From positions 2,132 through 66,131 of the forward strand of contig DATKVM010000004.1 of the NCBI GenBank assembly GCA_035530075.1: DNA of 64,000 nucleotides, given 5' to 3'. The DNA comes from Patescibacteria group bacterium (GTDB taxonomy: Bacteria; Patescibacteriota; Microgenomatia; UM-FILTER-40-11). The position numbers and the translations under genes are program-made. The notes under the pieces are model-generated. The model made no database searches, was not told where the DNA came from, and saw only the letters and a list, made by a program, of their open reading frames with translations. This document shows positions 30,852-63,901 of the stretch, piece by piece. The first letter of the stretch is position 1. The number at the start of each line of letters is the position of its first letter.

Positions 30852-31610
30852 TCAAGCCCAAATTTTCAGCCTTTTAAGGCCGTCGCCCTGAGAAGAAAGA
30901 AGCATTTGTTTGTAACTATCACCGTTAGGAAGAGTTTCCTCCCATTCTTGATCAGCTAATCCTCCTTCCAGATTGGTAATCTTAATTAGGCCACTATGAA
31001 CCCCTGGTACAGCCGTCTTTTCTGATGAGTGGACATACTCTATTTCCCTCACTTTCCCCAAATCCCTTACCACTTTTATGACGACAGCGATATGTTTTCC
31101 CCCATGTAAACGGATAGTGTCGCCCACTCGAATCTCATCTATCTTTTTCACCGGAATAGACAAATTCTTACCGGTCAGCTTATCGGCACTGACCTGGCGT
31201 TGGGCTAAAGTGCCCGGGAGACGGGGAATAAGGTCAGCTATCCCCCTCCCGCCTCTTCCTCTATCCAAAGCGTCCAGCATCCAAAAAACAAAGCCGGAGC
31301 AATCAACACCAATTTTTTTTCTTTTCATAAAAGCCAAAATTTCTTCTTCTGACATCTGATTAAGATTAACTGCCGCTTTTTTGGCTGCTGACTCTGTTGC
31401 TTCTACGATCTGTTCTGGTTTTCCTTTACCCCCAAACGGCCCAGTGATAGCCAATGAAAGCCTATTGCGCCAATAAGGGCAGCTAATTTCCTTCCCGCCA
31501 ATAGGCAAGTGAGTATATTGATAAAACAGACTCTCTAAAGCCTTCGAATTTTGCACTTTGCACTCTTGTCCTGAGCTTTGTCGAAGGATTGCACTTTGCA
31601 CTTTCGTCAT
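30852..31610 (-). CDS. NlpC/P60 (C40) family cell-wall peptidase
   Basis: The catalytic Cys motif (GVDCSGFVFW) and a downstream His (HIAVVIK) are present. The start was moved to the Met at 31608-31610, forming an ATGA overlap with the mraY stop. The N-terminus is encoded by repeat element copy A. Confidence 0.6.
   Translation of the reverse strand: MTKVQSAILRQSSGQECKVQNSKALESLFYQYTHLPIGGKEISCPYWRNRLSLAITGPFGGKGKPEQIVEATESAAKKAAVNLNQMSEEEILAFMKRKKIGVDCSGFVFWMLDALDRGRGGRGIADLIPRLPGTLAQRQVSADKLTGKNLSIPVKKIDEIRVGDTIRLHGGKHIAVVIKVVRDLGKVREIEYVHSSEKTAVPGVHSGLIKITNLEGGLADQEWEETLPNGDSYKQMLLSSQGDGLKRLKIWA
31551..31604. repeat. Intragenic repeat element, copy A (core CTTGTCCTGAGCTTTGTCGAAGGAT flanked by TGCACTTTGCACT tandems)
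   Basis: An exact 25-nt core is shared with copies at 36846 and 63353. Here it encodes the N-terminus MTKVQSAILRQSSGQECKVQ of the NlpC/P60 gene. Confidence 0.75.
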
Positions 31611-32641
31611 ATGTATGCTAGCCAAAGCCCAATAATGGCCAACATAATTGCTGCCAACCAAGCCCGCATCACGATTTTCGGCTCTTCCCAACCCTGGTTT
31701 TGTAGCCAAAGATGAAAAGGAGCAACCGCAAAGGCTTTTCTTTTTAAAAATTTCTTGGAAAGAATTTGAATTAAGCTTGAAGTGACTTCAACCACAAAAA
31801 TACCCCCAATGACCAGCAAAGCGACCACTTTACCAATTAAAAGTCCCACTACGGCCAAGGTAGCCCCAAAAGATAAAGCGCCAACATCCCCCAGAATAAT
31901 TCTGGCCGGATAAACATTGAAGTACAGGAAGGCGATTAAACTCCCTATCCAAAGAGCGATAAAAACCGAAAGCGGGGTATCCAAGACTGAATGAGAAAGC
32001 AACCAAAAGGCAAAAAGGCAAATTAAGAGCACCCCCGAAGACAAACCATCCAAGCCATCAGTGATATTAAAAGCATTGGCAAAAGCCACAATCGCCAAAG
32101 CTGCCAGTGGGATAAAAATGGGGCCTAATTTCAAGACCCCTAAAGAAGGAATATTGATAATGTCAATCTTCAAATTGAAATACATTAAAGAGCTGATAAT
32201 AAAGGCCAAAATCCATTGAATGGCAAATTTGTGCCGTAACCTTAGGCCAAAAAAGCCGCTTTTTTCAAAACCAAAGAATTTTTTGATATCATCATAAAGT
32301 CCTAAAAGACCAAAGGAAACAAAGGTAAAAAAAAGAATGTTAAGCTCATCCGTCATTCGGTAGGCACTCCGAATATAGGTCCCCAGAAAAGAAAGCAAGG
32401 GGAAAAGGATTAAATACAAAAGAAAAGTGACGCCGATAACTAATAAACCCCCTCCGACTGGCGTACCTGCTTTGGGATTATTAAATTTGTCAAAAATGCG
32501 GGTCCGTTGGCCCTCCATATCACGAGTTTGTTGAACCCGACGATAAAATTTCAATTTATAGAGAAGATTAATAAACGGCACCACCAGAATACTGGTGATT
32601 AAAAAAGAAAAGATAAGTAGCCCGAGATACAACGCAATCAT
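31607..32641 (-). CDS. mraY: Phospho-N-acetylmuramoyl-pentapeptide transferase
   Basis: A polytopic membrane protein carrying the NITDGLDGL motif, the Asp-rich loops and the C-terminal HH motif region. Confidence 0.9.
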   Translation of the reverse strand: MIALYLGLLIFSFLITSILVVPFINLLYKLKFYRRVQQTRDMEGQRTRIFDKFNNPKAGTPVGGGLLVIGVTFLLYLILFPLLSFLGTYIRSAYRMTDELNILFFTFVSFGLLGLYDDIKKFFGFEKSGFFGLRLRHKFAIQWILAFIISSLMYFNLKIDIINIPSLGVLKLGPIFIPLAALAIVAFANAFNITDGLDGLSSGVLLICLFAFWLLSHSVLDTPLSVFIALWIGSLIAFLYFNVYPARIILGDVGALSFGATLAVVGLLIGKVVALLVIGGIFVVEVTSSLIQILSKKFLKRKAFAVAPFHLWLQNQGWEEPKIVMRAWLAAIMLAIIGLWLAYI

Positions 32642-32648
32642 GTAAAAT

Positions 32649-33860
32649 TCATTTTACACACTCTCGTAGTTTAGGACAAGTTAAACAAGGTTGGTAATGG
32701 TGGCAAACAACTTCCGGGCAACCAACCTCTTTTCCCTCTAAGAGTAAAAGGATTCTTTCTAAGTGACGCAATAAGGAAGCTTTCAAGTAAAGCAAATCGT
32801 CTTTTTTAAGAATAGTTTTTAAAGTTTCGGCCGCTTCTTGAACGTCTTTTGTCCAAAAGAGCTGGTTTTTTTTCATTCCTGCCTTTTGGGCCGCCTCAAT
32901 GATTAATTTAGTCAAAGGCCCAACGCCCACAATAACATCCAGCTTCAACTTCGCCGCCTCTTCACCCACCAGGCGATGCATTTTTTCACCATATTCTCCC
33001 AACTCACCCATCTCACCCAAAACCGCCACTTTCCTCCCCGGAAATTCTGTCAAAGACCTTAAACCCGCCATGGTTGAGGCCGGATTTGCCCGTCTGGCAT
33101 CGTTTATCAGAATAGTTCCTAGCGGTCCCGGCTCTAAACTAAATCTTCCCGACAACGGCTTTAGTCCTGCCAATCTCTCAACTGTCTTATCCTTCTTGAC
33201 TCCCTGCTCCCTTCCGACAAGGTAGGCCACCAAGCAAGCATAAACTGCCGGATAGCCGAGCAATCCCGTCTTGACCATCAGCTTTTCTTTGCCCTCGTGA
33301 AGCTCAAATTCAGTTCCCCCAAGTGAAATCTCGACTTTATCTGCCCAGACATCAGCTTTCTTATCAAGACCGTAAAAAAACTTCTTTCCCTTAAATTCCT
33401 GACCAACTTTTCTTACCGTCTCATCATCATAATTAAAAACCGCCAGGCCGCCCTCGGGGATTGCCTCCACCAGCTTCCTTTTTTCCGCGACTACATTTTC
33501 CAAAGAACCCAAGTGTTCCTCATCTGCATGAACCGGAGTAATGCCAGTTAAAATCGCTATCTTAGGCTTAACCAGGGAAAGGTGAAGGTCCATCTCGCCT
33601 CGATGGTCAACTCCATACTCCAAAACTAAAACTTCATTCCAAATTTTAGTTTTCAAAATCGTGATTGGCAAGTTATAAATCGTGTCCAGATTAAGATCAG
33701 TCCGATTAACCGAATACTTAGCCGAAAGCACTTCGGCAATCGCCCGAACCGCGGCAGTTTTCCCATAACTGCCGGTAACCCCGACCACTGTCAGCTGCAA
33801 ATTAACGTCCAGCCACAATTTGGCCAAAGTCCTTCTTGCTTGATGAAAAAGATTCTTCAT
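32649..33860 (-). CDS. murF: UDP-MurNAc-tripeptide--D-alanyl-D-alanine ligase (MurF-like), lacking the usual N-terminal domain and carrying a Cys-rich C-terminal tail
   Basis: The Mur ligase central domain reads VVGVTGSYGKT. TDLNLDTIYNLPITIL resembles the MurF N-N-x-I-G-x-P loop, and the C-terminal KASLL region resembles MurF KGSR. It sits immediately upstream of mraY, as in the canonical order. Confidence 0.65.
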   Translation of the reverse strand: MKNLFHQARRTLAKLWLDVNLQLTVVGVTGSYGKTAAVRAIAEVLSAKYSVNRTDLNLDTIYNLPITILKTKIWNEVLVLEYGVDHRGEMDLHLSLVKPKIAILTGITPVHADEEHLGSLENVVAEKRKLVEAIPEGGLAVFNYDDETVRKVGQEFKGKKFFYGLDKKADVWADKVEISLGGTEFELHEGKEKLMVKTGLLGYPAVYACLVAYLVGREQGVKKDKTVERLAGLKPLSGRFSLEPGPLGTILINDARRANPASTMAGLRSLTEFPGRKVAVLGEMGELGEYGEKMHRLVGEEAAKLKLDVIVGVGPLTKLIIEAAQKAGMKKNQLFWTKDVQEAAETLKTILKKDDLLYLKASLLRHLERILLLLEGKEVGCPEVVCHHYQPCLTCPKLRECVK

Positions 33861-34873
33861 GATTTTTTTTCTAAAGAGAGTCCAATTATCCGATCTAAAA
33901 GCTTTTCATAACTAATACCTGCTACTGCCGCTTCTTTAGGAAGCAAAGAAGCTGGTGTTAATCCGGGAATAGTATTGATCTCTAAAACATACGGTTTACC
34001 GCTGGAAATGATCATATCCACTCTCCCAAACCCCTGACAGCCAATGGCCTTATATACTTTTATAGCAACATCCTGTATTTCCTTAGTCAACTTCGGGGCA
34101 ATCCGGGCAGGAACAATCTCGTCGCACTTTCCATCAGTATACTTGGCCTCATAATCAAAAAATTCATTTTTAGGGACTATTTCCACCACCGGTAAGGCTA
34201 TCGGGTCTTCATTGCCCAAAACTCCACAGCTTACTTCAGTTCCAGAAAGATATTCCTCCACCAAAACTCTTGGACCATATTGAAATGCTTTTTCCAAGGC
34301 TTTCCCCAACTCCTCCCTTTTATGAACAATGCTAACTCCCACGCTTGACCCCTGAGATGAAGGTTTGACTACCACTGGCAGCGGAAAATTTTCCCAAACT
34401 AAACTTTCGTTGTCTGTCTTCTTGAGCATCAATGCCTTCGCCATGGAAATTTTTTCGCCAGCCATAACTTTTCTGAACATCGATTTATCCATTCCTATGG
34501 CTGAGGCCAAAACTCCTGCTCCGGTATAAGGAATGCCGATCATTTCCAGCATCCCTTGAACGATCCCGTCCTCACCAAAAGGCCCATGCATGACAATAAA
34601 AACCACGTCTGCTCTTTGGGGTGCTTCTTCTGGTCGAATTACCTCTTGTGTGGGTGTCAAATCTTTAGCTGAAGAAACTTCCTGCCGATATGCCAAAAGT
34701 CCTTCTTTTTTCTTTAACTGCCACCTCTGACCGTCGTTAGAAATTACCAAAGGTAGAACCTCGTATTTGGCTGGGTCTAAATGTCTTACCACTTCTCTCC
34801 CACCAACTAAGGAGACCTCGTGCTCTGGGCTCTTCCCACCCATTAAGACAATGACACGAATCTTTTTCTTCAT
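33857..34873 (-). CDS. ddl: D-alanine--D-alanine ligase
   Basis: An ATP-grasp Ddl with N-terminal VLMGGKSPEHEVSL, a central region and the C-terminal E-x-N motif (LEINTIPG). Confidence 0.9.
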   Translation of the reverse strand: MKKKIRVIVLMGGKSPEHEVSLVGGREVVRHLDPAKYEVLPLVISNDGQRWQLKKKEGLLAYRQEVSSAKDLTPTQEVIRPEEAPQRADVVFIVMHGPFGEDGIVQGMLEMIGIPYTGAGVLASAIGMDKSMFRKVMAGEKISMAKALMLKKTDNESLVWENFPLPVVVKPSSQGSSVGVSIVHKREELGKALEKAFQYGPRVLVEEYLSGTEVSCGVLGNEDPIALPVVEIVPKNEFFDYEAKYTDGKCDEIVPARIAPKLTKEIQDVAIKVYKAIGCQGFGRVDMIISSGKPYVLEINTIPGLTPASLLPKEAAVAGISYEKLLDRIIGLSLEKKS

Positions 34874-36192
34874 ATGTTTACCCTCTTAATATCTGCCCCT
34901 AAAGATTTCAAACGGCCGTCCAGATTTTCATAACCTCTATCAACATGCTCCACGTTCAAAAGTTCACTCTGGCCTCGGGCAATTAAAGAGGCGAGAATTA
35001 GAGAGGCGCCGGCCCGCAAATCGGTAATTTCTTCGGTCATTGCCCTTAGGGGAGTGGGGCCGACAATTCTGGCCGCATGTATATATTCCGGCCGGTCATC
35101 TTCCAAATTAAAGACATAAATTTCTTCTGGGTTTTCTACTACCGGATTAAAAAGCTCGATCTTAGCTCCCATTTTTTTAAGTTCATTAACGAAGGCAAAG
35201 CGATTTTCAAAAATCGTTTCGTGAATAACTGATTCTCCTTCCGCCTGAGTCATTAAAATTCCCCAAAGGGGCATCCAGTCAGTCATAAAACCCGGATGGG
35301 GTCGGGTAGTAATATTAACCGCTTTTAAGGGGTCCTTGTAAAAAAATCTAATGCCCCGTCTTTCAACCTCAAAACCACCACCCGCTTTTTTAACTGCCAT
35401 CAAAAAAGCGCCTAAGTCTTTCTCCTCCGCATGGAGAACAAAAACATCGCCTTTGGTAGCCAAAGCAGCGCAGCCAAAAGTGACCGCTTCATTGCGGTCA
35501 TACATGACGGTATAATCGGTTCCGTGAAGCTTATCCACCCCTTCAATCACAATTGTTCTCGGCTCCACCCGATTAATTTTTGCCCCCATTTGATTTAAAA
35601 AGGCAATTAAATCATCTACTTCCGGCTCTTGAGCCGCATTTTCTAAAATTGTTTTCCCTTTTGCTGCCGCAGCGGCAATAATCATAATATCTGTCCCCCC
35701 ATGAGTATTCTTGGGGAAAGTAAAGTGCCCACCAGAAAGTTGCTTTGCTACAATTTCATAGCGATCGGGAAAGCTTCTAATCTCCGCCCCTAAAGCCTGC
35801 AACCCCTCCAAATGTCGGTCAATTGGCCGCCGGCCGATTTTGCAGCCACCAGGGTTGGGGATAATCGCCTTACCAAAATGATGGAGAAGGGGACCGATAA
35901 AATAGGTGGCCGCCCGGGAGAGTTCGCCGCTTTTTTGGGAAAGGTTATATCTAGATAAACCTCGGGGGGTCACTTGCATCACATGATTTTCCCCAAAGGT
36001 CACCTCCCCACCCAACTCCCGGATTACTTCCGCCGTGGATAGAACATCGCCAATTTTAGAGAAATTATGGAGCGTCGTTGGTTCATCCGCATATAAGGCG
36101 GCAATCATTAGTTTAAAGCCGGAATTTTTCGCTCCGCAAAGGCTAACTTCACCAGAAAGAGGCTTCCCCCCGGTAATGATAAATTTATCCAT
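34870..36192 (-). CDS. murA: UDP-N-acetylglucosamine 1-carboxyvinyltransferase
   Basis: An EPSP-synthase-like fold with the catalytic Cys loop region (KNTHGGTDIMI). The N-terminus MDKFIITGGKPLSGEVSLCGAKNS is typical of MurA. Confidence 0.9.
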   Translation of the reverse strand: MDKFIITGGKPLSGEVSLCGAKNSGFKLMIAALYADEPTTLHNFSKIGDVLSTAEVIRELGGEVTFGENHVMQVTPRGLSRYNLSQKSGELSRAATYFIGPLLHHFGKAIIPNPGGCKIGRRPIDRHLEGLQALGAEIRSFPDRYEIVAKQLSGGHFTFPKNTHGGTDIMIIAAAAAKGKTILENAAQEPEVDDLIAFLNQMGAKINRVEPRTIVIEGVDKLHGTDYTVMYDRNEAVTFGCAALATKGDVFVLHAEEKDLGAFLMAVKKAGGGFEVERRGIRFFYKDPLKAVNITTRPHPGFMTDWMPLWGILMTQAEGESVIHETIFENRFAFVNELKKMGAKIELFNPVVENPEEIYVFNLEDDRPEYIHAARIVGPTPLRAMTEEITDLRAGASLILASLIARGQSELLNVEHVDRGYENLDGRLKSLGADIKRVNI

Positions 36193-36195
36193 AGA

Positions 36196-37137
36196 TTAAA
36201 ATTCTCCTACTTTTACAATTTCTTCTTTTAAGTCAACGCCAAACTTTTCTTTAACCTTAGCCCTGGCTAAATCCATCAGAGCCACAACATCAGCCGCTTT
36301 TGCCTGGCCCACATTGACAATGAAATTAGCGTGCTTTTCGGAAATTTTTGCCCCGCCAATTTGGGCACCTTTAAGCCCGCATTGTTCAATCATCTCGCCC
36401 GCCGACTGCGGTTTGGGATTAACAAAGACGCTCCCGGCCGAAGGCTCTTTCGGCTGAGCGCTTCTTTTTTCCAAATTTTCTTGGATTTTTTTCTTAATTT
36501 CCTCTGGCTCCCCCCGCGACAGTTCAAACTCTGCCGTCAAAACGATTTCGCCACCGCCCCTCTTAAAACGGCTGGTTCGATAATCAAACTGACATTCGTC
36601 TTTCGTTAGCCAAGAAATCTTGCCATCTAGAAAAAGAACTTTAACTCTTAAAACTTTGTCGCCAATATTCTGTTGCCACGCTCCGCCGTTCCCCCTTATC
36701 GCTCCTCCAATCGTCCCGGGAATTCCTGCCATAAATTCCAATCCGGCGACGGAATTTTTAACTAGTTCGTTTAATAAAACACTTATCGGCACCCCTGCCT
36801 CCACCGTTACTAAATATTTTCCGTTCAAACTTTGAACTTTGAACTCTTGTCCTGAGCTTTGTCGAAGGATTGAATTTCGAATTTTTATTACGATTCCCCT
36901 AAACCCCTTATCTCCTACGAGCAAATTAGAGCCACCACCAAGAATTAAGTAGACCACTCCTGCCTCTCTGGCAACCTTGACTGCTTTAATTAAATCCTCC
37001 TCCGTTTCTGCCACCAAAAACAAATCCGCCAGTCCACCGATTTTAAAAGTCGTATGGCTAGCCAAAGGCTCACCCACCTTCACCTTGCCTTCTCCAAGCA
37101 AATCAATTATTTTTTGATATCTTTCTTCCATCTTCAC
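36196..37137 (-). CDS. murB: UDP-N-acetylenolpyruvoylglucosamine reductase
   Basis: An FAD-binding domain (FKIGGLADLFL, GGGSNLL) followed by a MurB C-terminal domain. It contains repeat element copy B in frame (ILRQSSGQEFKVQSL). Confidence 0.85.
   Translation of the reverse strand: MKMEERYQKIIDLLGEGKVKVGEPLASHTTFKIGGLADLFLVAETEEDLIKAVKVAREAGVVYLILGGGSNLLVGDKGFRGIVIKIRNSILRQSSGQEFKVQSLNGKYLVTVEAGVPISVLLNELVKNSVAGLEFMAGIPGTIGGAIRGNGGAWQQNIGDKVLRVKVLFLDGKISWLTKDECQFDYRTSRFKRGGGEIVLTAEFELSRGEPEEIKKKIQENLEKRSAQPKEPSAGSVFVNPKPQSAGEMIEQCGLKGAQIGGAKISEKHANFIVNVGQAKAADVVALMDLARAKVKEKFGVDLKEEIVKVGEF
36827..36886. repeat. Intragenic repeat element, copy B
   Basis: AAACTTTGAACTTTGAACT, then the 25-nt core, then TGAATTTCGAATTTTT, all inside the murB coding sequence. 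Confidence 0.75.
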
Positions 37138-37157
37138 CTATGTAACATATATATATG

Positions 37158-38606
37158 TTACACTTCTACCCCCTGGAACTTTTGAGTTATTTCCTCTATT
37201 AAGTTGCTAAATCTTAAACCTCCGGACGACATAAAGACAATTATGTCTCCTTCCTTGGTCTGGTGGGTCAGGTATCCAATTAGTTTTTCATCCACCGGTT
37301 CGTAAAAAACCTTCGGTTGGGTTTCGCCAATCGCTCCAACAATATCCGAACCGGTTACTCTTTGCTCTTTAGGTATTTCTTTCAAAAAACTTACCTTACT
37401 GACAATCACCTGGTCAGCGCTATCAAAGACAGTGGAATACCACTGCAAGCTCTCTCTGAACTTTAACGCGGTTGCGAATGGATTAAAAACACAAATAATC
37501 CTGCTTTCTGGGAAAAAATCTCGCAGTGCCAAAAGAGACCCTTTAACTTTTTCTTGGAATTGGGCAATATCTGAAAAAAGATATCTTCCCCCAAATTTTC
37601 CTAATAACTCTAACCTGCTTTTAACTCCCTTAAACGTCTTTAAGGCTTTCTTGATCGTCCCCGAATCAATTCCTAGTTCAAGCGACATGGCGACCGCACC
37701 ACAAATGTTCTGCAGGTTATGTTTCCCAATCAAAATCGTTTCCAGGTCAATTTCTTGGTTTTTAAATGAAATGGTGAATTTTGTTTTTCCGTTCTCAATC
37801 GAATAGTTTTTAACATAACAATCCGCATTGGTTGAATCAAAAGAATAACTAATCTTCCGACTGGGATATTGTTCCGCAACTTCAGGTCTGACATTTTCCA
37901 ATTCATAAACCAAAATTCCATCTTCGGGAAGTAGTTTAACAAGTTCAATAAAAGCCTTTAAATATTGCTCTTCAGATTTGTACACCTCAGGATGATCCCA
38001 AATGGTCGCGGTCAAGAGAAGATACTTCGGTTTGTAATACATAAATTTTGGCAAATCACAAGGACCAAGGGCCGGGCATTCATCACCCTCCGTTACTGAA
38101 TATCCAGAGTTAGTAATTTGGATTCCATCGGGAAAATTAATCGGGATATCTGAAATCATATATGAGGGATTCTTTCCAGCCACTTTTAAAATCCAGGTTA
38201 TAATAGCCGAAGTGGTTGTCTTACCAAAACTGCCCGCTACCACAACAGAGTTTTCTTTAATTAGGTACTTCTCAAAAGCTTCTGGGAATGACATTACTGG
38301 ACAAGAAAGCTTCTTTGCTTCCAAGTATTCGGGGTTATCAAGATCAATCATTCTCGCACTTCGGCCAATGATTACCAAATTAGCATCTTTGGGCACATTT
38401 CTAGCATCATAACCCTTAATATAGGGGATTTTATTCTCTCGGAGATAGGTGGAAATGGGAGGGTAAACGTTTTTCTGGTCCGATCCTGAAACTTCCCAAC
38501 CCATACCTTTAAAGGCCTTAGCCAAAGGGGCCATAGTTTTACCAGCGATCCCGATAAAATAGACTTTTCTCAAATAAGCTTTTTTCAAATAAGCTTTTTT
38601 TGCCAT
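37158..38606 (-). CDS. murC: UDP-N-acetylmuramate--L-alanine ligase (MurC/Mpl-type)
   Basis: The N-terminal VYFIGIAGKTMAPLAKAFKGMGWEVSGSD matches the MurC/Mpl Rossmann-like domain, followed by the Mur ligase central and C-terminal domains. The N-terminus carries a tandem duplication (KKAYLKKAYL) from a 12-bp DNA repeat. Confidence 0.65.
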   Translation of the reverse strand: MAKKAYLKKAYLRKVYFIGIAGKTMAPLAKAFKGMGWEVSGSDQKNVYPPISTYLRENKIPYIKGYDARNVPKDANLVIIGRSARMIDLDNPEYLEAKKLSCPVMSFPEAFEKYLIKENSVVVAGSFGKTTTSAIITWILKVAGKNPSYMISDIPINFPDGIQITNSGYSVTEGDECPALGPCDLPKFMYYKPKYLLLTATIWDHPEVYKSEEQYLKAFIELVKLLPEDGILVYELENVRPEVAEQYPSRKISYSFDSTNADCYVKNYSIENGKTKFTISFKNQEIDLETILIGKHNLQNICGAVAMSLELGIDSGTIKKALKTFKGVKSRLELLGKFGGRYLFSDIAQFQEKVKGSLLALRDFFPESRIICVFNPFATALKFRESLQWYSTVFDSADQVIVSKVSFLKEIPKEQRVTGSDIVGAIGETQPKVFYEPVDEKLIGYLTHQTKEGDIIVFMSSGGLRFSNLIEEITQKFQGVEV

Positions 38607-38613
38607 ATTCGGA

Positions 38614-41250: not shown

Positions 41251-41322
41251 CGTTTATCCTTGACTATTATATCACTCTATAAGCTTCCCCGAACCAAAAG
41301 CCGCCATTATAGCCCGTTTCCC

Positions 41323-42996: not shown

Positions 42997-42997
42997 G

Positions 42998-43258: not shown

Positions 43259-43263
43259 AAATT

Positions 43264-46863: not shown

Positions 46864-46900
46864 TCGAGTATATCAATTCCCCTCTTAAAAAACAAAAAAA

Positions 46901-47449: not shown

Positions 47450-47480
47450 CCTTATTTTAGCCTTCACGGAGTTTCGGAAG

Positions 47481-50128: not shown

Positions 50129-50129
50129 T

Positions 50130-51239: not shown

Positions 51240-52321
51240 TTTTTCTCTGCCAAACTCTTAAATTCCTTGGCAAATCTTGCTTGGCCAAATTTTTCCGCCT
51301 GCCGACGGCAGTCTTCTTCCAAAAAATCTTTCGTTTTAAATTGTCCTAAGGCTTTAACCAGCCCCTCAGCCGTCTGGGGGTAAAAAAAGAGGCCGGTTTT
51401 CCCTTCGGCAATCGTCTCGGTCGCCCCGCCGGAACGATAAGCAATCACCGGTTTCCCGCAAGCTTGCGCTTCCAACGGCACCAACCCAAAATCTTCTTCT
51501 TGCGGAAAGATAACCGCCTGGCAATTTTGATAGTAATCTAAAAGTAATTCATCTGTCAAATGCCCCATAAACCGGATATTCTCCCCCGCTTTTTTTCTCA
51601 ACTTCCCCATTTCTCTTCCTCCCCCCACAATCCGCAACTCCCATTTTAGCTGATTAAACGCTTCCACCACTAAATCAACCTTTTTGTACTTTACCAATCT
51701 CGAAACCATCAAAAAAAACTTTGAATTTTGAATTTTAGCTTTGCATTTTGAACTTTGAACTTTGAATTTATTTATATCTACCGGCGGATAAACAACTTCA
51801 CTCTCCCGGCTATAATATTTTTTAATTCTCTCCTGAACGGTTTTGGAAATCGCCAAATAGTCATCCGGTCTTTGCGCTGCCACTAAATCCCATTTCTTTA
51901 AATTCTCAATTAAGGGTAAGCTAAGGGTCTTTTTTAAGGGGGTATCAAAGTGCTGATTATAACCGCTCCAAAGATAACGCGTAGGAGTTAAGCAATAGCA
52001 AAGATGTAAAGTTTTCGGCTTGGTAATAATACCCTTAGCCGCCTCGCTTGTGACCGAAATGACGACATCATAATCATCAAAATTAAAGTTCTCAAAGGCC
52101 AAAGGCATCAGCGGCGCATAAAATTCGTGATTGCTTTTGACAGCGGGAAAGCCCTGCAAAAATGAGGGGATCACCTTAAAAACTTTGGCCCAAGGAGCGG
52201 TTTTTGGATTGTAAACCGAAGTATAAAGCGGCGCTTCCGGCCAGATTTCACGCAGGGCCAAAAGCACTCTTTCCGCCCCACCCCATTTATTAACTCGATC
52301 ATAAACCAAAGCGACTTTCAT
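51203..52321 (-). CDS. Glycosyltransferase family 4 (GT-B)
   Basis: The C-terminal GT4 motif (E.FGLVPLEAQACGKPVIA) is present. It contains a degenerate repeat copy encoding KFKVQSSKCKAKIQNSK. Confidence 0.75.
   Translation of the reverse strand: MKVALVYDRVNKWGGAERVLLALREIWPEAPLYTSVYNPKTAPWAKVFKVIPSFLQGFPAVKSNHEFYAPLMPLAFENFNFDDYDVVISVTSEAAKGIITKPKTLHLCYCLTPTRYLWSGYNQHFDTPLKKTLSLPLIENLKKWDLVAAQRPDDYLAISKTVQERIKKYYSRESEVVYPPVDINKFKVQSSKCKAKIQNSKFFLMVSRLVKYKKVDLVVEAFNQLKWELRIVGGGREMGKLRKKAGENIRFMGHLTDELLLDYYQNCQAVIFPQEEDFGLVPLEAQACGKPVIAYRSGGATETIAEGKTGLFFYPQTAEGLVKALGQFKTKDFLEEDCRRQAEKFGQARFAKEFKSLAEKKWKGHLRTTFTL
51717..51775. repeat. Degenerate copy D of the intragenic repeat; only the TTGAAYTTTGAA tandem flanks are kept and the core is largely lost
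   Basis: AAACTTTGAATTTTGAATTTTAGCTTTGCATTTTGAACTTTGAACTTTGAATTT lies inside the GT4 coding sequence. Confidence 0.5.
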
Positions 52322-52821: not shown

Positions 52822-52841
52822 TTAAAAAATCTTTGGCTACC

Positions 52842-53645: not shown

Positions 53646-53677
53646 TTTGTAATATATGTAAATATATGTTACATGAC

Positions 53678-54526: not shown

Positions 54527-55644
54527 CTTAGGGCGTTATTGTAGACCAAAAGCGTTTCCGAAGCCATCTTTTCCCAGGAGTACCCTTTGACCAGCTCAGA
54601 GCCCTGTTTTTTCATTTTTTCCTGAAGGTTTTTATCACTTATGACTAATTTTATTTTATCCGCCATGTCACCGGAATCGAGCGGGTTAAAGTACACCGCC
54701 GCTTCTTTATATATCTCTTGAAAAACGGGAATCTTCGAAGCGACGACTGGCGTCCCTTGAGCCATCGCTTCCAACCCAGGCAGGCCAAATCCTTCTGACA
54801 GACTCGGAAAAACAAACACTTGCGTCCCCCTTAATAAGACCGTCAACTCTTCTTCCGGCACAAAACCCACTAAATTCACCTCATTTTCTGCTCTCACCTC
54901 CTGAATTTTCTTTTTTAATTTCTCCCAAAAAACACTTCTCGCACAGACAATCACTAGTTGTAGTCTGAAGTCCATAAGCCACAAGCTCTTTACTGCTTCA
55001 ATCAATCTTTCAACGTTTTTATGCGGATAAACGCTTCCGACATAGAGAAGAAAAGGTTTTTCAATATGATATTTTTTCAAAACATCCTCGCTTTTGATAC
55101 TTTTGATACCTTTATCCACTCCCTCGTAGGTCACAACGATTTTTTCCGCCTCAAGACCGTACTGCCTAGCTAGCTCATTTTTGACAGACTGGCTGGGCAC
55201 TAAAATCCGGCTTGCCCTTTTAACCGTCAGGCCAAAAACCACTTTGTAACCTAAATACTTTAACCAATAAATCAAGGGGTTTTTGGTTGTCGTTGCCGCT
55301 CCCCGCGAAGTGTGCTTAATTAGATCATGAATTGTCACCACAAAGCGGCCAAAATAAAAAACAGGAACATTGAAATGGGGAAAATGCATTAGATCAACTT
55401 TTTCCTTAGCGATTAACCCCGGTAGCAAAAATTGCTCCTTTAGAGAGTAATGAGAGGCTTCCGCCACTACTAATTTAACGTTGGGGCTTGCAAATTCAGC
55501 CTTCGGAGTAAATTCTTTCCGCGTAAACAAAATATACTCATTGTCCTTGTCTGTTTTCAGAAGTTCTGTCACTAAATTCTCCACATACCGGCCAATGCCC
55601 GCGTGCTTAAGCCCCATCATTCGACAATCAATTCCGATTCTCAT
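54523..55644 (-). CDS. Glycosyltransferase family 4
   Basis: A GT-B fold with the C-terminal EGFGLPGLEAMAQGTPVVAS motif. It contains an in-frame TTTTGATAC tandem repeat. Confidence 0.8.
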   Translation of the reverse strand: MRIGIDCRMMGLKHAGIGRYVENLVTELLKTDKDNEYILFTRKEFTPKAEFASPNVKLVVAEASHYSLKEQFLLPGLIAKEKVDLMHFPHFNVPVFYFGRFVVTIHDLIKHTSRGAATTTKNPLIYWLKYLGYKVVFGLTVKRASRILVPSQSVKNELARQYGLEAEKIVVTYEGVDKGIKSIKSEDVLKKYHIEKPFLLYVGSVYPHKNVERLIEAVKSLWLMDFRLQLVIVCARSVFWEKLKKKIQEVRAENEVNLVGFVPEEELTVLLRGTQVFVFPSLSEGFGLPGLEAMAQGTPVVASKIPVFQEIYKEAAVYFNPLDSGDMADKIKLVISDKNLQEKMKKQGSELVKGYSWEKMASETLLVYNNALR

Positions 55645-56555
55645 GAAGGTTTAAGATAATGATAAACCACCCTAATTGTTCCCTTAATTCTAATGCCTAA
55701 AAGAATTAAAGAAGTCATCCAGGCAGGGTAAACACCTTGATAAAATTTGCGATAAAAAATCTCCATTGCTTTCACCGAAGCTCGGGCTACCTTTAAACGG
55801 TTCTCTTTGGAATTTCGACTGATTTTTTCAGTCTCCCGGCGCAAACCTGAACTGGCTCCCTTAAAGTGAGTCAATAAGGGCCGGGCATAAAACATAACTT
55901 TAAAACCAGCCCGCTTAATCCGATAAAAAAAATCTAAATCCTCGCCATAAAAAAAATACTCCTCATCCCAAGCGCCCACTTTTTCAACTACTTCCCGTCG
56001 GATCATCATAAAGGCCCCCGCCCCGGCATCAATTTCGTGATTTTGATTTAAGTCCAAATAAAACCGGTGATATTGTCCAAAAAGCCGGCTTTGAGGAAAG
56101 ATTCTCTCCAAACCCAAAAAATAAGTTATCGAGGCCCAAGGAGTGGGAAAGCCCCGGTGGCAATCAGGGTCTATCTTCCCCGAAGCCAATAAGGTTTTAG
56201 CCGTTAAGGCACCCATGTTCTCGTCGGTCCGCATAAACCCAATCGCTTCCTCAAGGGCATTCGGTTCAAGTCGAGTATCGGAATTAAGAAAAAGGATAAA
56301 ATCTCCCTTCGCTTCTTTTAAGCCAATATTATTGCCCCGAGCAAAGCCGACATTAGTTTTATTAATGATTAATTTAACCCTGGGAAATTCCTTCCTAACC
56401 ATTTGGGGGCTGCCGTCAGAAGAAGCATTATCGACCACAATTACTTCCGCTGTCAAAGAAGGAGAATGTTTTAAGCTAGCCAGGCATTCCCGCAAGAAAT
56501 CCCGAGTATTATAGCTTAAAACAACAACTGATAAATTAATTTTTTTTTCTCGCAT
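55641..56555 (-). CDS. Glycosyltransferase family 2
   Basis: GT-A N-terminus LSVVVLSYNTRDFL with DxD (LNSDT). The start was set at the internal Met at 56553-56555 to give a short overlap with the upstream gene; the ORF continues to 56645. Confidence 0.8.
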   Translation of the reverse strand: MREKKINLSVVVLSYNTRDFLRECLASLKHSPSLTAEVIVVDNASSDGSPQMVRKEFPRVKLIINKTNVGFARGNNIGLKEAKGDFILFLNSDTRLEPNALEEAIGFMRTDENMGALTAKTLLASGKIDPDCHRGFPTPWASITYFLGLERIFPQSRLFGQYHRFYLDLNQNHEIDAGAGAFMMIRREVVEKVGAWDEEYFFYGEDLDFFYRIKRAGFKVMFYARPLLTHFKGASSGLRRETEKISRNSKENRLKVARASVKAMEIFYRKFYQGVYPAWMTSLILLGIRIKGTIRVVYHYLKPS

Positions 56556-57750: not shown

Positions 57751-57763
57751 AGCAACTGGCTAA

Positions 57764-59215: not shown

Positions 59216-59226
59216 TTGGCAGTCAA

Positions 59227-60693
59227 TTAAGCTCGACTTTTTATGGTCATTTCCTTGTTTAAATCAACAACCTTCAAGGCAATTCCTACTAAAATCCAGA
59301 AGAAAAAAGCCACTTTTGAGGCCTCCAGAACATCAATAAACGAAGCGTTCATAAAATAACCGACGGCCGCCCCGATTACCCCCAAAACTATCAGTTCCTC
59401 ATTCCGCTTTGGTCCTCTGGTTAAAAAGGCCACTAAGCGCCGAGCTATTTCGGCGATTACGGCCAAAAAGGCCAGTGAACCCAGAAGGCCAACTTCACCT
59501 AGCATCCGCAAATAATCGTTATCCGTTGCGAGAGTGATAGAAGAATAACCGGTTCCCAGTAAAGGATTTTTCAAAAAGGCTCGAATAGCGCGCGGCCACT
59601 CCACCTTAAGACGAATATCGGTTGAACGGCCAACCGCTAATTCAGTCGACTCAATGGGCGGATATTCTCCCGGCTTAAGTTCGGGGATTGGAGTGGGGGT
59701 AGCAGTCGGAGTCAGCGTCGGTAAAAAGCCCGGCTTAGTCGTCACCGGGGGAAGCATTAGGGTAGGAGTGGGAGTAGTCGTCGGCCCCTGCGCTATTCGG
59801 GGAGGTCTAATTTTCACCTGCCCGGAAAGAAAACTTAAATCAATCTTAAAAGTCGCCGCATATCTTTGACCCAGATCGCCCGCAAACACCATCCCGAGAA
59901 TGGATATCGCTAAAAAGGGCACCAGCCAAACTTTTTTCTTCGCTAAAAACAAGACTAAACTAACTCCCACCAGGTAGGCGCCAAAAGAAATCCGCGAAGC
60001 CGTGAGAAGTAAAATGTAGTAAGAAAAAAGGCCTAAGAAAAAAATCGGTAACTTTACCCGCCACTTTTTAACTATCATTAAAGCGACCACGACCAAAGGT
60101 AAAATAAGAACCATATAGGCAGCCAAATCATAATGACCGGCAAAAGTGGAATTTACTCTTGCCCACCAGGTTAATTGCAAAACTAAACCCCTAGAGAATT
60201 CTTCATTCATCGTTGAAATTACCGGCCAACCGAAAAATTTCTGTCCCAAGGCATAAAATATTATTCCCGAAGCAGCCACTAAAACTGTCCAGCCATAAAG
60301 ACGAAGTTGCTTAATATTTTTGAAAGAATAATAAGCCACAAAAAGCAAAGAGAAATATTCCACCCTTCTTAAAAAATGCAGCAGAGCCAAATGAGGCACT
60401 ACATTTTTAGTAATGAAAACCGCGCTTAAGATTGAAAGCAAACCGACCCCGAAATACAGGCTAATCAACTGAACCAACGAATCTTTAAGCAAGGAGAAAT
60501 CTCTTTTTATCAGCAACCGTAAACCGAACAAGCCAACAATTAAAGCCACGAAGAGGTCTTCCAGTCTAATCGAAACATATGTCCCCGAAACTCCAAAAAG
60601 AGGCAATTTCGGATAGAGCGGAATAAAAAACAAGAGAAAAGTCACCGCCCCTAAAAGCCAATTTTCTTTAACTGATTTTAAGCGCTTCCCCAT
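59227..60693 (-). CDS. O-antigen ligase/polymerase-like (Wzy_C family) membrane protein with a Pro/Thr-rich linker
   Basis: A multi-TM protein whose periplasmic loop region resembles Wzy_C. An inserted segment reads PTTTPTPTLMLPPVTTKPGFLPTLTPTATPTPIP. Confidence 0.55.
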   Translation of the reverse strand: MGKRLKSVKENWLLGAVTFLLFFIPLYPKLPLFGVSGTYVSIRLEDLFVALIVGLFGLRLLIKRDFSLLKDSLVQLISLYFGVGLLSILSAVFITKNVVPHLALLHFLRRVEYFSLLFVAYYSFKNIKQLRLYGWTVLVAASGIIFYALGQKFFGWPVISTMNEEFSRGLVLQLTWWARVNSTFAGHYDLAAYMVLILPLVVVALMIVKKWRVKLPIFFLGLFSYYILLLTASRISFGAYLVGVSLVLFLAKKKVWLVPFLAISILGMVFAGDLGQRYAATFKIDLSFLSGQVKIRPPRIAQGPTTTPTPTLMLPPVTTKPGFLPTLTPTATPTPIPELKPGEYPPIESTELAVGRSTDIRLKVEWPRAIRAFLKNPLLGTGYSSITLATDNDYLRMLGEVGLLGSLAFLAVIAEIARRLVAFLTRGPKRNEELIVLGVIGAAVGYFMNASFIDVLEASKVAFFFWILVGIALKVVDLNKEMTIKSRA

Positions 60694-61540
60694 AAGTCTC
60701 CTTTAGGTAATTATCGTTCTTCAGGTGACCAATTATCAAGGCTAAAAAGGCTTTTGTCTTAAGCATTAATCTTAAAATAAAAAGTTCCGGAAAATTTTTG
60801 TGTTTCCGATAAAAATATAAAAGCCCTCGGTAAATATTAATAATGGGGTCCTTTTTGCCGTGCTTGGCACTGCCACGACCCAAATGGATAATCTCTGCCT
60901 CTTTAAAAAAGTAGGTTAAGAAACCGGCTTTTCGAGAGCGATAAAACCATTCCACTTCTTCCATATACATAAAAAGTTGTTCGTCTAACCCGCCAATTTT
61001 TTCAAAAACTTCTTTTCTAGCCATAAAAGCTGCCCCCATCAGCCAATCAGCTAATCCCGATTTGGCTGGGGAACAACGAACAAAGTTGTCCGCTCCCCAA
61101 TGCTCGGCGAAAAGCATTACCAGAGCCACCAGTAAATTAGGAAAACGGCCACAATTAGATTGAGGACTCCCATCCTGATTTAAAAGTTTCGGCCCTACAA
61201 TCCCAATTTCCGAATGCTCATCTAAAAAATTTATCAGCTTCTCAATTGCCCCCTTTTTTATTAAGGTATCGGAATTCAAAAGCATAATATAATCCCCCTG
61301 GGCTCTTTTAATCCCCTCGTTATTTCCCTTGGAAAAACCCAAATTTTCTTTATTAATGATTAATTTAACCCCGGGAAATTCTTTCTTTACCGCCTGAGCA
61401 CTGCCGTCAGTCGAACCATTATCTACGACGATCACTTCTACCTCTGGACCCAGTTCCAAGCTTTTAAGACACTGGTTTAAAAGCTCTCTCGTGTTCCAGG
61501 AAAGAATAATAATAGAAAGCTTTACTTTACTTTTTGCCAT
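60668..61540 (-). CDS. Glycosyltransferase family 2
   Basis: KLSIIILSWNTRELL, a DxD (LNSDT) and the PGV/GFS motif. The start was moved to the Met at 61538-61540. Confidence 0.8.
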   Translation of the reverse strand: MAKSKVKLSIIILSWNTRELLNQCLKSLELGPEVEVIVVDNGSTDGSAQAVKKEFPGVKLIINKENLGFSKGNNEGIKRAQGDYIMLLNSDTLIKKGAIEKLINFLDEHSEIGIVGPKLLNQDGSPQSNCGRFPNLLVALVMLFAEHWGADNFVRCSPAKSGLADWLMGAAFMARKEVFEKIGGLDEQLFMYMEEVEWFYRSRKAGFLTYFFKEAEIIHLGRGSAKHGKKDPIINIYRGLLYFYRKHKNFPELFILRLMLKTKAFLALIIGHLKNDNYLKETYGEALKIS

Positions 61541-62112
61541 CTTTGGAAAAGTTCCCAATAAGCGCGATAAAGAAGATAAGTTACTCCCAAGGTCAAATAA
61601 AAAATAAGTAGCCGTTGCCATACTTTTGATTCTTGATAAAAGAGAGTGACCTTAAACTGATAAACTTTACCGTCAACAATTAAAATATTTTTCACTCTTC
61701 TTTCAGGCCGAGTAAAAGGGTCATTGTCCCACTCAAAACCACTCACAAAAAGCGATTCCCTAAAAGGGTGAACAAATTCTTCCACATAAGTCGTTTGCTG
61801 AGTCTCGCGGAGGATTTCTTTAATTCTTTCTGGCGGGTGATTCAGTTTATAAGTAATTAAGGGGATATCTAAAAAAGGAGATCGAGAAAAATAATCTTGG
61901 TAAAAATCTACCACCTCTTTCCGTAAAGTGTCTGTATAGTAGGCGGAAACATTGGCAATCTGCACCGTATCCCCCGGCTCTGTTGATTTCACCGACGAAG
62001 GTAAAGGGGGAAAGTCTTTAGGGGCCGGTAAAACTAAATAAATCGTTCCGATTGAAAAAATTAAAAAAAAGAGAATTTGGCCTGCTCTCTTCATCTTATT
62101 TCTTGAAATCAT
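61522..62112 (-). CDS. Hypothetical membrane-anchored protein
   Basis: An N-terminal TM (ILFFLIFSIGTIYLVL) and a second C-terminal TM, with no recognisable domain. Confidence 0.4.
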   Translation of the reverse strand: MISRNKMKRAGQILFFLIFSIGTIYLVLPAPKDFPPLPSSVKSTEPGDTVQIANVSAYYTDTLRKEVVDFYQDYFSRSPFLDIPLITYKLNHPPERIKEILRETQQTTYVEEFVHPFRESLFVSGFEWDNDPFTRPERRVKNILIVDGKVYQFKVTLFYQESKVWQRLLIFYLTLGVTYLLYRAYWELFQRWQKVK

Positions 62113-62118
62113 CTTAAT

Positions 62119-62772
62119 TTACTGAAATAGTCTTGAACGACCTAAACGATAACGAAGCTCTTTATTTTTTCTCTCGCCGATTTCTTTCGCCGGAACACCG
62201 GCAACAATCTTAAAAGGAGCGACTTCTTTAGTTACCACCGCTCCCGCCGCGACAACCGCCCCTTTGCCGATTTTCACTCCCGGCAGGATTATTGCCCGCG
62301 GACCGACAAAAACATAATCTTCAATTTCCACCGGCTGGACCACCACCCGAAAATCATCGCTTTCTAAATCATGCTCGGAGTTATAAATTAAGACCTGAGA
62401 GGCAATATCGACATGATTACCGATTTTTAGCAGCGCCCGACCATCCAGAAAAGCAAACTCCCCCACTAAAGCATCCTCACCAATGCTGACACCCTTAGGA
62501 TTAAAAAATCTCGCCCCAAAATGAATCTTAGATTTTCTCCCAATCTTAAGGCCGGCCAGAGAATAAATAAATTTTCGCCAAAACCAAAAAGGGCAATAGC
62601 CTGTCCAGTCAACAATAAGTAAAACAAAATCCTCCCCCCAGGAAGTCACTCTCCTTAAAGCCTTGCTTATCGCCTCTCCTAATGAAAGTAAACGGTCGTT
62701 CTTGTCGGTGAAGCTCAGACCACGTGAGGAAAGATGGATATTGTTAGAGTAAAACATATTAGTTGGCGCCAT
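62119..62772 (-). CDS. Hexapeptide-repeat (LbH) sugar O-acetyltransferase, WcaF/WbbJ-like
   Basis: Repeated [LIV]G-x4 hexapeptides (IGNHVDIASQVLI, VGPRAIILPGVKIGKGAVVAAGAVV) are present. Confidence 0.75.
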   Translation of the reverse strand: MAPTNMFYSNNIHLSSRGLSFTDKNDRLLSLGEAISKALRRVTSWGEDFVLLIVDWTGYCPFWFWRKFIYSLAGLKIGRKSKIHFGARFFNPKGVSIGEDALVGEFAFLDGRALLKIGNHVDIASQVLIYNSEHDLESDDFRVVVQPVEIEDYVFVGPRAIILPGVKIGKGAVVAAGAVVTKEVAPFKIVAGVPAKEIGERKNKELRYRLGRSRLFQ

Positions 62773-63901
62773 CTAGACTTTCAAGTGTTTCCAGAACTTT
62801 TCTCGCACATTTCTCCCACGAAAACTGCTTTACTTGCCCCCGCCCTCTAGCAATTATCGCATCTCTTTGGCTTTTATTCAAACTCAGAACTTTCTCTATT
62901 GCGGCGGCGATACTTTCCGTCTGGCGAGGATTACAGTAAATTGCGGCTTCCCCACCTACCTCCGGCAAGCTTGCCATATTGGCGGCCACTACCGGCACCC
63001 CCAAAGCCATTGCTTCCGCCACCGGAATCCCGAATCCTTCATAAAAAGAAGGCAAAATATAAGCCTTGGCTCCCTCTATCAAATATGGTTTTTCTTCTTC
63101 CTCCACAAAGCCAGTAAAAACAACTTTATCCGCTAACCCCAAGTCTTTTACTTTCTGAAAAATTTCTCCATAAAGCCACCCTTTCCTACCGGCAATGACC
63201 AAGTTAACTTCATTATTTCTCTTGGCCACCAAGGTAAAAGCCTCCAGCAGACCCTTCAAATTCTTCTTTGGTTGCAGTGTCCCCAGATAAAGCAAATAGT
63301 CTCCTTCAATTCCATACTTTTGCTTGATTCCTTCAACTTTGAACTTTGAACTCTTGTCCTGAGCTTTGTCGAAGGATTGAACTTTGAACTTCTCGTATCC
63401 TGGATAGGCGACCATAATCTTTTCCGGCGGGTACTGGTATATCTTGACTATTTCCGATTTGGAAAATTCAGAGATGGTAACAATTCGGCTGGCTCTTTTG
63501 ACTGAATAGCTTTCCCATTTCCTTAATTGATAGAGGTCCTTTTTGGCAAATTGCTCCGGATGACGGTGATGCCAAAGGTCCATAATGGAAATGACGGTTG
63601 GAAAAGGGGAGAGGCGAGGAGCATAATGGCTGGGGCTATAAAAAACGCTTAGCTTTTCTCTTTGAGTAAATAGTTTCAACGGAAGAGCTACTTGAGTCCA
63701 TAATTTACTCGGCCCAAAAACTCGGTATCGCCACCCTTCTCTTTCCTTCGGTAAGTCAGGCAAAGCTGGCTCTTTTAAATAAAGAAGATAGGAATTTCTT
63801 TTATCAATTTTTTCCAGCTGTCTAATCACATTAAAAGCAAACTGGCCGACTCCTACCCGATTTTTTTGGTTTGCCTCATTGGCATCAACCCCGATTAGCA
63901 T
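62759..63901 (-). CDS. Glycosyltransferase family 4
   Basis: The C-terminal EGFGIPVAEAMALGVPVVA motif is present. Repeat copy C is in frame (KFKVQSFDKAQDKSSKFKVEG). Confidence 0.8.
   Translation of the reverse strand: MLIGVDANEANQKNRVGVGQFAFNVIRQLEKIDKRNSYLLYLKEPALPDLPKEREGWRYRVFGPSKLWTQVALPLKLFTQREKLSVFYSPSHYAPRLSPFPTVISIMDLWHHRHPEQFAKKDLYQLRKWESYSVKRASRIVTISEFSKSEIVKIYQYPPEKIMVAYPGYEKFKVQSFDKAQDKSSKFKVEGIKQKYGIEGDYLLYLGTLQPKKNLKGLLEAFTLVAKRNNEVNLVIAGRKGWLYGEIFQKVKDLGLADKVVFTGFVEEEEKPYLIEGAKAYILPSFYEGFGIPVAEAMALGVPVVAANMASLPEVGGEAAIYCNPRQTESIAAAIEKVLSLNKSQRDAIIARGRGQVKQFSWEKCARKVLETLESLDGAN
63334..63392. repeat. Intragenic repeat element, copy C
   Basis: CAACTTTGAACTTTGAACT, then the exact 25-nt core, then TGAACTTTGAACTTC, all inside the GT4 coding sequence. 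Confidence 0.75.

Follow-up and report, generated by a model that had tools for sequence, protein, structure and literature searches.

In-frame copies of a 24-nucleotide hairpin repeat in three genes of a Patescibacteria genome are probably recent insertions into heptanucleotide arrays

The DNA considered here, referred to as the window, is a stretch of 64,000 nucleotides (nt) from a Patescibacteria group bacterium (assembly GCA_035530075.1, contig DATKVM010000004.1, positions 2,132 to 66,131). It contains a short repeat with the 25-nt core CTTGTCCTGAGCTTTGTCGAAGGAT inside three genes: a 252-aa gene that follows mraY, murB, and a gene for a GT4/GT1-family glycosyltransferase (hereafter GT4; Table 1). 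When the whole window was scanned, three exact copies of this 25-mer, against a chance expectation of 0, were found on the + strand at 31565-31589, 36846-36870 and 63353-63377. No further match with up to three mismatches was present in the window, and 100 shuffles gave none either, even at three mismatches. The same sites were grouped by a repeat finder as a 57-nt family of 86-100% identity (31547-31603, 36828-36884 and 63335-63391), within which copies 2 and 3 are 95% identical and have nearly identical AGTTCAA flanks. An initial annotation of the window had reported the core in four genes. Three of these copies are exact, but the supposed fourth (51717-51775) contains no core at up to three mismatches; it is an unoccupied array of the type entered by the core elsewhere in the window, not a degenerate copy. 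A fourth member of the wider repeat family, which that annotation overlooked, is present at 17102-17120.

Tandem direct repeats flank every copy on both sides, as first described, and their unit is 7 nt long at all three: copy 1 has TTTGCAC to its left and right, and the other two copies have TTTGAAC. The host open reading frames (ORFs) are all on the - strand and read through the repeat; on this coding strand the mobile unit is 24 nt long and reads TCCTTCGACAAAGCTCAGGACAAG. The earlier observations that the hosts are unbroken and that different frames are used both hold, ILRQSSGQ being encoded in murB (..IRNS-ILRQSSGQ-EFKVQS..) and in the gene after mraY (MTKVQSA-ILRQSSGQ-ECKVQ..), and SFDKAQDK in GT4 (..KFKVQ-SFDKAQDK-SSKFKV..). 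The translation of copy 1 is uncertain. The array at this site comes after the mraY stop and before the conserved portion of the next gene. Gene callers use an ATGA that overlaps the mraY stop and is common to one relative; an in-frame GTG is found just after the core, and the gene of another relative starts further downstream. By Pfam, the murB host carries MurB_C and FAD_binding_4 domains, and both glycosyltransferases listed in Table 1 are of the GT4/GT1 type. The gene after mraY returned no Pfam match at E<0.1 except a spurious one, and its previous label, NlpC/P60, which a DCSGFV...H motif alone suggests, is not supported by Pfam.

Table 1. Positions of the 24-nt repeat, the arrays around it and related features; positions are those of the window unless preceded by a locus label.
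Feature	Position	Strand	Remarks
24-nt unit, copy 1	31565-31588	-	Exact match; 18 nt past the ATG that overlaps the mraY stop; ILRQSSGQ if translated
Heptamer array, site 1	31543-31606	-	Split by copy 1; coding-strand unit AAGTGCA
24-nt unit, copy 2, in murB	36846-36869	-	Exact match; ILRQSSGQ is residues 90-97 of a 313-aa ORF
Heptamer array, site 2, in murB	36823-36884	-	AATTCGA/AATTCAA before the core, AGTTCAA after it
24-nt unit, copy 3, in GT4/GT1-family glycosyltransferase gene	63353-63376	-	Exact match; SFDKAQDK
Heptamer array, site 3	63333-63391	-	Split by copy 3; unit AAGTTCA
Core-free heptamer array, in second GT4 gene	51717-51769	-	About 7-8 uninterrupted units; ..INKFKVQSSKCKAKIQNSKF..
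Variant family member TGGTTCGACAGGCTCACCA	17102-17120	-	TGGT-TCGACAGGCTC-ACCA; non-coding, in the loop of a weakly detected T-box leader
T-box leader, sub-threshold	17016-17190	-	Rfam score 29.5 bits, gathering score 93; E = 6e-5
aroA locus	L005:6330-7667		LRQSSGQA
aroA locus	L043:1940-4057		LRQSSGQA

The three sites were compared with syntenic loci of the two closest relatives (L120, L122 and L209; 75-83% protein identity). MurB and GT4 themselves are 100% identical to proteins named Patescibacteria group bacterium, and their relatives are named Microgenomates or Shapirobacteria. MurB of the closest relatives (75-77% identical) is 8 aa shorter, exactly at copy 2. Where the window has heptamers plus the 24 nt, L120 has a pure array of four TTTCTAA units, encoding FLISNFKFLIK, and its length is that of the window minus exactly 24 nt; the corresponding murB loop of L122 is an unrelated sequence of the same length as that of L120. 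Likewise, the nearest orthologue of GT4 (P0122, 82% identity) lacks exactly 8 aa. At this site the window has five heptamer units plus the 24 nt and L209 has five units (GAA AAGTTAA AAGTTAA AAGTGAA AACTTCA AAGTTGA AGG), with nothing duplicated. At the site after mraY the window is 45 nt longer than L122, a difference made up of the 24-nt core and three heptamers (8 + 7 codons), and L122 has ATGACGAAAGTGCAAAGTTCGGAGG, which consists of two heptamer units without the core. The comparison with orthologues bears out the proposal that the segments at murB, GT4 and the site after mraY are insertions, and puts the inserted unit at exactly 24 nt.

The limits of the unit were examined using array phase. 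The test took in 19 copies embedded in heptamers, of which 3 are from the window and 16 from other genomes; in all 19, 24 nt was the sole deletion length among those tried (18-30 nt) that restored the phase of the array, the deleted unit usually being TCCTTCGACAAAGCTCAGGACAAG. Moreover, many Microgenomates orthologues encode peptides of heptamer arrays at this MurB turn and this GT4 linker; their units differ, and the core is missing (VQSSKLKVQS, KLKIKNEKLKI, KFQISNSKFQI, KCQMSNVKCQM, GFKGSRVQGFKV). Since relatives have core-free arrays at the same loops and the phase test returns 24 nt, the heptamers are the target and not part of the element. The initial annotation had counted the flanking TTGAACT-type repeats as part of the mobile unit, which cannot be maintained. 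In two other lineages a second and unrelated core, the palindrome CCTGCCTGCCGGCAAGGCAGG of 21 nt, is found at these MurB and GT4 sites. Two outcomes raised at the outset against a mobile repeat, a segment shared by all orthologues and an assembly artefact, were checked: orthologues without the segment exist, and the identical MurB-with-insert allele is present on at least 11 contigs of independent JGI and ENA assemblies from several samples. We therefore regard the three repeats of the window as probably recent and precise insertions of a small, non-autonomous mobile hairpin repeat of 24 nt, with a probability of about 0.75.

The loci with the CCTGCCTGCCGGCAAGGCAGG core are L210:62-1015 (murB, where it is nested to 42 nt) and L211:1501-2658 (GT4), in both cases inside heptamer arrays. 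In the window, this second core family (CCTGCC..GGCAGG) was sought and is absent.

The element is not peculiar to this type of genome, since searches of other collections found the identical sequence in at least 15 phyla. The exact 20-mer CCTTCGACAAAGCTCAGGAC is present on at least 119 species-representative GTDB contigs, against a chance expectation of about 1 match in 596 Gb. Hosts include Chloroflexota, Nitrospirota, Binatia, Acidobacteriota, Zixibacteria, Planctomycetota, Verrucomicrobiota, Gemmatimonadota, Eremiobacterota, Methylomirabilota, Bacteroidota, Cyanobacteria (Nostoc linckia), alpha-, beta-, gamma- and delta-proteobacteria and many Patescibacteria, some carriers being cultured isolates or closed chromosomes. 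As for metagenomes, 80 contigs contain the exact 24-mer. These scans used exact words, and the sample is consequently biased toward undecayed copies. Flanks are unrelated between metagenome loci. About 22 of 81 metagenome copies lie in heptamer arrays, with many different units (those around the core in other genomes include AAGTCAA, AATCAAG, CAGCAAC, TACGCAA and TATCGAA), and in about 25 of 81 cases the copy is nested within the loop of another member, as in GTCCTTCGAC|core|TCCGCTCAGGAC; these context counts were partly made by eye. The Nostoc linckia copy (L044) is likewise nested, as GGTTCGAC|core|AAGCTCACC, and stands beside classical heptamer arrays. Several copies occupy the loops of terminator-like hairpins, such as L002 (AAAAGGCAACCCCGT-core-ACGGGGTTGCCTTTT) and L071-type loci. 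In two betaproteobacterial metagenome-assembled genomes, the aroA gene (EPSP synthase) carries the identical 24 nt in frame at the same position (..GDEA-LRQSSGQA-WRVTG..). A phage vehicle was considered and rejected, since the 20-mer has 0 matches in 2.9 million viral contigs; plasmid matches were two, both weak. The longest ORF without a stop at the aroA locus L043 reaches upstream beyond the part that resembles aroA; it opens with MPFEWLRANG.., which looks like a further copy of the family.

Copies of the 24-mer also show a preference for particular sites. The dinucleotide AA precedes the 24-mer at 34 of 67 non-redundant sites, compared with a background of 10.6% (p = 3e-16). Pairs of empty and filled sites in a conserved PD-(D/E)XK gene have the form GGNGAA^(T/A)T.., with 24 nt added and no duplication. 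SFDKAQDK/E is found at the same codon in 8 of the 120 best PD-(D/E)XK homologues. With the insert masked, each protein that bears it is closest to an insert-free protein (80-90% identity), the bearers being mutually 72-83% identical. Their cores are identical at 24/24 positions and the flanking third-codon positions at 39-49%. This pattern points to repeated independent insertion at one codon in several lineages, or else to precise loss. No target duplication was seen in the empty and filled pairs (GT4 and PD-(D/E)XK), an absence that is read from unit counts in diverged relatives and from the PD-(D/E)XK site, which is not an array. A short ..GAAGG.. downstream complements the 5′ end of the core at all three window sites. 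It was discarded as a feature and is probably incidental, since relatives already have it in their empty sites and other heptamer loci lack it.

The core belongs to a family of small hairpins in which a covarying stem of 4-5 bp surrounds the constant loop TCGAC-AA(A)-GCTC, and unit length varies with the stem among family variants. Pairing at the four positions that flank the TCGAC-N2-5-GCTC loop reaches 68, 64, 62 and 51% in 167 family instances not used for retrieval, against 52, 44, 39 and 39% in shuffles. Compensatory pairs of arms include ATGCT/AGCAT, ATGGT/ACCAT, GCCCT/AGGGC, GTCCT/AGGAC and GTGCT/AGCAC. The T-box leader that contains the variant member of the window lies upstream of a class I aminoacyl-tRNA synthetase gene (14161-16977). 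Its alignment to the T-box family has a 28-nt insertion, ccugagugguucgacaggcucaccauuu, in a stem loop, and this insertion carries the hairpin-family variant GGTTCGACAGGCTCACC. An Rfam search of the whole window at gathering thresholds returned tRNA only, and permissive searches around copy 3 and a GC-rich nested locus returned nothing relevant. RNA or DNA structure was rejected as the main feature of the repeat in this genome, given that fold z-scores are unremarkable except for copy 3 with its host flank.

AlphaFold models built from orthologue alignments (mean predicted local distance difference test, pLDDT, of 82.7 for MurB and 90.3 for GT4) place the inserts at tolerant positions. The sole part of MurB with pLDDT below 50 is residues 90-96 (ILRQSSG), which form a turn joining two beta-strands. 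The block 171-180 of GT4 averages 50, with values below 50 only at residues 178-181, and the low-confidence segment 171-181 is the heptamer-plus-core peptide in an inter-domain linker. Five of the six frames of the 24-nt unit are free of stops. Conservation is at the DNA and not the protein level, as had been claimed: the window copies are read in two frames, and those elsewhere in all three sense and in two antisense frames, the third sense reading being PSTKLRT. Open stretches of 120 codons or more hold 48 of the 65 non-redundant metagenome copies (41 sense, 7 antisense); ORF status at loci beyond the window was judged by stop-free stretches alone. The use of frames is skewed, with SFDKAQDK the commonest (about 28 of 42 sense copies). 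Because intergenic copies show no strand bias, the bias in orientation and frame is attributed to selection on the encoded peptide. Host genes would survive because 24 nt is 8 codons, five frames are open and the positions are surface loops or linkers. The possibility that the AAA (24-nt) form is the sole frame-neutral variant compatible with genes, the AA form being kept out of them, is not supported, as 9 of 14 AA/AG-type copies, from AT-rich loci, are also in long open stretches and unit length varies with the stem.

The closest described phenomenon is that of the small dispersed repeats (SDRs) of Nostocaceae together with STRR heptamer arrays. Elhai et al. 2008 reportedly recognised eight SDR families of 21-27 nt, that are present at some homologous sites and absent from others, occur nested and are associated with hairpins and heptamer repeats. 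STRR sequences are said to have been described by Mazel et al. 1990 as heptanucleotide tandem repeats of heterocystous cyanobacteria. The units found here, of 24 nt and 21 nt, are likewise very small dispersed repeats treated as mobile; they too are present or absent between otherwise homologous sites, and one exact copy is in Nostoc linckia, nested and near heptamer arrays. The arrays resemble STRR sequences in their tandem 7-nt units, at least three copies of a unit specific to the locus or family, and they flank the core in the Nostoc locus. They differ in lying inside Microgenomates protein genes, at conserved loop positions and with a unit that varies between close lineages, where they are translated as peptides with a 7-aa period (KVQSSKF, FLISNFK and others). 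In published accounts, SDRs are short mobile elements found in Nostocaceae only, SDR5 using HIP1 as insertion site (PMC5861425), and are REP-like sequences without terminal tags (PMC3733652). In contrast with the restriction to Nostocaceae given in PMC5861425, the present family is abundant in Patescibacteria and reaches at least 15 phyla; it also differs in standing in frame in essential-type genes and in its pattern of repeated insertion at the same codon. New relative to the SDR description are the identity across phyla, the abundance and apparent activity in Patescibacteria, the in-frame position in essential-type genes, the same-codon insertions in separate lineages, and the heptamer arrays inside Microgenomates proteins. 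No link between heptamer repeats and the candidate phyla radiation was found in the library searched, and a literature search with nucleotide and peptide strings of the repeat found nothing relevant.

Elements of the IS200/IS605 family insert 3′ of a short specific target. The 24-nt unit is similar in having neither terminal inverted repeats nor visible target-site duplications and in being inserted 3′ of a short target (AA here), but its intergenic copies show no replication-strand bias. Repetitive extragenic palindromic (REP) sequences and the REPIN-RAYT systems offer a comparable likeness, being imperfect hairpins of 20-40 nt without terminal inverted repeats or target duplication. REP sequences are defined by a conserved GTAG (or CGTC) tag at one end (PMC3733652), which is missing from the unit and its family variants. 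Furthermore, the exact window copies are in or at ORFs where REP sequences are extragenic, no inverted REPIN pairs are present in the window, and there is no RAYT or TnpA gene among the 20 window ORFs checked.

The comparisons above show that the unit enters DNA without visible target duplication, preferentially 3′ of AA, and favours tandem heptanucleotide arrays, existing hairpin loops and the loop of another copy. The arrays available in this Microgenomates-type genome are inside genes at tolerant positions (the beta-hairpin turn of MurB, the inter-domain linker of GT4 and the first codons of the gene after mraY), so that the insertions came to lie in coding sequence. Selection would then purge intolerable insertions, leaving an excess of sense copies and of the hydrophilic SFDKAQDK frame. 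By analogy with IS200/IS605 and RAYT-type HUH enzymes, a trans-acting enzyme might recognise the hairpin, probably in single-stranded DNA, and insert it 3′ of a short target, although we regard this as rather doubtful. A broader proposal is put forward tentatively, at somewhat less than even odds: a pan-bacterial family of hairpins of about 24 nt may rank among the smallest mobile DNAs and may now be active in Patescibacteria, with their genomes of about 1 Mb, using machinery that is perhaps a conserved host enzyme and not a transposase. On the same tentative proposal, insertion would be precise and duplication-free, 3′ of AA into arrays, hairpin loops or other copies, and one codon could be struck repeatedly.

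Several observations weigh against recent insertion of a mobile hairpin in the window. The AT-rich window copies are weak hairpins, with fold z-scores of -0.4 to -0.8 for copies 1 and 2; copy 3 (- strand) alone reaches z = -3.3, by pairing with flanking host sequence. No transposase, reverse transcriptase, recombinase or Y1/RAYT domain was detected in the 20 ORFs checked of the window, which covers 64 kb of the genome. Single-stranded DNA transposons usually show a replication-strand bias, and intergenic copies have none as judged by GC skew (4 vs 6, a tiny sample); for copies inside ORFs such a bias was set aside as a measure, because it follows gene orientation. A 7-nt target duplication would be hidden inside a heptamer array. 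Searches with exact 20- and 24-mers favour undecayed copies, and recent and conserved copies are inseparable at some loci. Finally, the comparison with SDRs is one of description and draws on a single Nostoc locus.

Other explanations were considered alongside insertion of a mobile unit. With no dedicated mobility, ectopic homologous recombination or gene conversion could have carried the core from one heptamer array of a genome to another, the 7-nt flanks serving as homology. The near-identity of copies 2 and 3, flanks included, would be expected from such a process, arrays with related units are common in this lineage, and no transposase was seen in the window. However, at copy 1 the unit that adjoins the core on either side is a different one (AGTGCAA), the identical 24 nt stands between unrelated heptamer units in other genomes, and many copies are in hairpin loops or plain coding sequence without heptamers (e.g. 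PD-(D/E)XK, aroA). As the units differ up to the core borders and many sites are free of heptamers, gene conversion between arrays is unlikely; nor can recombination account for the identity across phyla. The identity might also be due to selection more than to parasitic mobility if the repeat were a functional cis-element, whether as an RNA or DNA hairpin to which a conserved host factor binds or as a signal for regulation or processing. Such a role would suit a constant loop with covarying stems, cores that are 24/24 identical where neighbouring synonymous sites are saturated, and the presence of copies in terminator-like hairpins (L002, L071-type) and in the T-box leader loop; at copy 1, the AGGA of the core is upstream of the possible GTG start. 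At none of the three window sites, however, do the closest relatives have a copy, and the host genes can therefore do without it. The contexts in which copies occur are many and unrelated, both orientations are found, the window copies form hairpins of low thermodynamic stability, there is no match to an Rfam family, and function alone leaves the origin of new copies unexplained. A cis-element is accordingly considered improbable.

The likeness to Rickettsia palindromic elements (RPEs) noted in the initial annotation would make the repeat a palindromic non-autonomous transposon, a miniature inverted-repeat transposable element (MITE) inserted in frame as a tolerated peptide module. RPEs are about 100-150 bp long, are largely confined to Rickettsia and have one conserved peptide each; MITEs are 50-500 bp, with terminal inverted repeats of about 10-30 bp. 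The part of the comparison that stands is survival in frame, since the copies are in unrelated housekeeping genes at structurally tolerant positions such as surface loops, and RPEs are described as in-frame fusions (PMC10969869). Size, architecture and frame use do not agree: the present unit has 24 nt and a 4-5 bp stem without a long palindrome, the peptide changes with the frame used so that there are several, the family is spread over at least 15 phyla, and its copies nest in hairpin loops. The unit is non-autonomous, dispersed and multi-copy, as MITEs are, but has no terminal inverted repeats and no visible target-site duplication. On the grounds of size, inverted repeats and duplication, the RPE-like reading fails and is highly improbable. 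To our knowledge the 24-nt unit has no parent insertion sequence. An ancient shared peptide motif, or an assembly artefact, is barely credible. The skew of frames toward SFDKAQDK could hint at selection at the peptide level; against this, the nearest orthologues are without the segment, frames differ between hosts, and confidence in both structure models is lowest at the insert. The same allele was moreover assembled independently at least 11 times, and cultured isolates and closed chromosomes also carry the sequence.

If 24-nt units are truly mobile, very small mobile repeats extend from one cyanobacterial family to much of Bacteria, and essential enzymes, MurB, AroA and glycosyltransferases among them, would prove open to remodelling by loop insertions of 8 residues. 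Patescibacteria would be tractable for finding the machinery, by correlating young copies with gene content in genomes of about 1,000 genes. Recurrent peptide motifs (SFDKAQDK, LRQSSGQ) contaminate protein families and the annotation of hypothetical proteins; the GC-rich motifs PFDKLRANG and LRQAQGE are ones that we take to be forms of this repeat family. The detection of RNA families can also be broken by the family, as in the T-box leader with its 28-nt loop insert (29.5 bits against a gathering score of 93). The in-gene heptamer arrays are a separate and undescribed feature of Microgenomates proteins.

Further repeats are present in the window. Two adjacent core-free heptamer arrays (coding-strand AATTTCT and AAATCCA types) are found at 17243-17295, in the intergenic region directly after the ftsZ stop. 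Tandem arrays of a 9-nt unit (AAAGTATCA type) lie at 14119-14159, 27209-27249 and 55091-55114; the former two are intergenic and in mutually opposite orientation, and the last is in a gene, where it reads GIKSIKS. The N-terminus of MurC is encoded by 2.5 copies of a 15-nt tandem repeat (MAKKAYLKKAYLRKVY; 38564-38600). Other intergenic arrays are an 18-nt unit repeated 3.9 times between ftsA and a divergent Memo/AMMECR1 gene (19945-20015) and an 8-nt unit repeated about 4 times between a PALP-domain gene and the gene after mraY (30628-30670). GC skew of the + strand is strongly and uniformly negative, at -0.09 to -0.20, throughout the window (1-64000), and the - strand carries about 58 of the 64 long ORFs; a comparable disparity between strands is reported for a complete Microgenomates genome (PMC7143001). 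The relative L122 has a gene of the 23S_rRNA_IVP family between ftsW and murG (L122:20107-20496) that is absent from the window. A direct repeat of 173 nt (56275-56447 and 61266-61438; 73% identity) probably reflects paralogous genes of the glycosyltransferase cluster.

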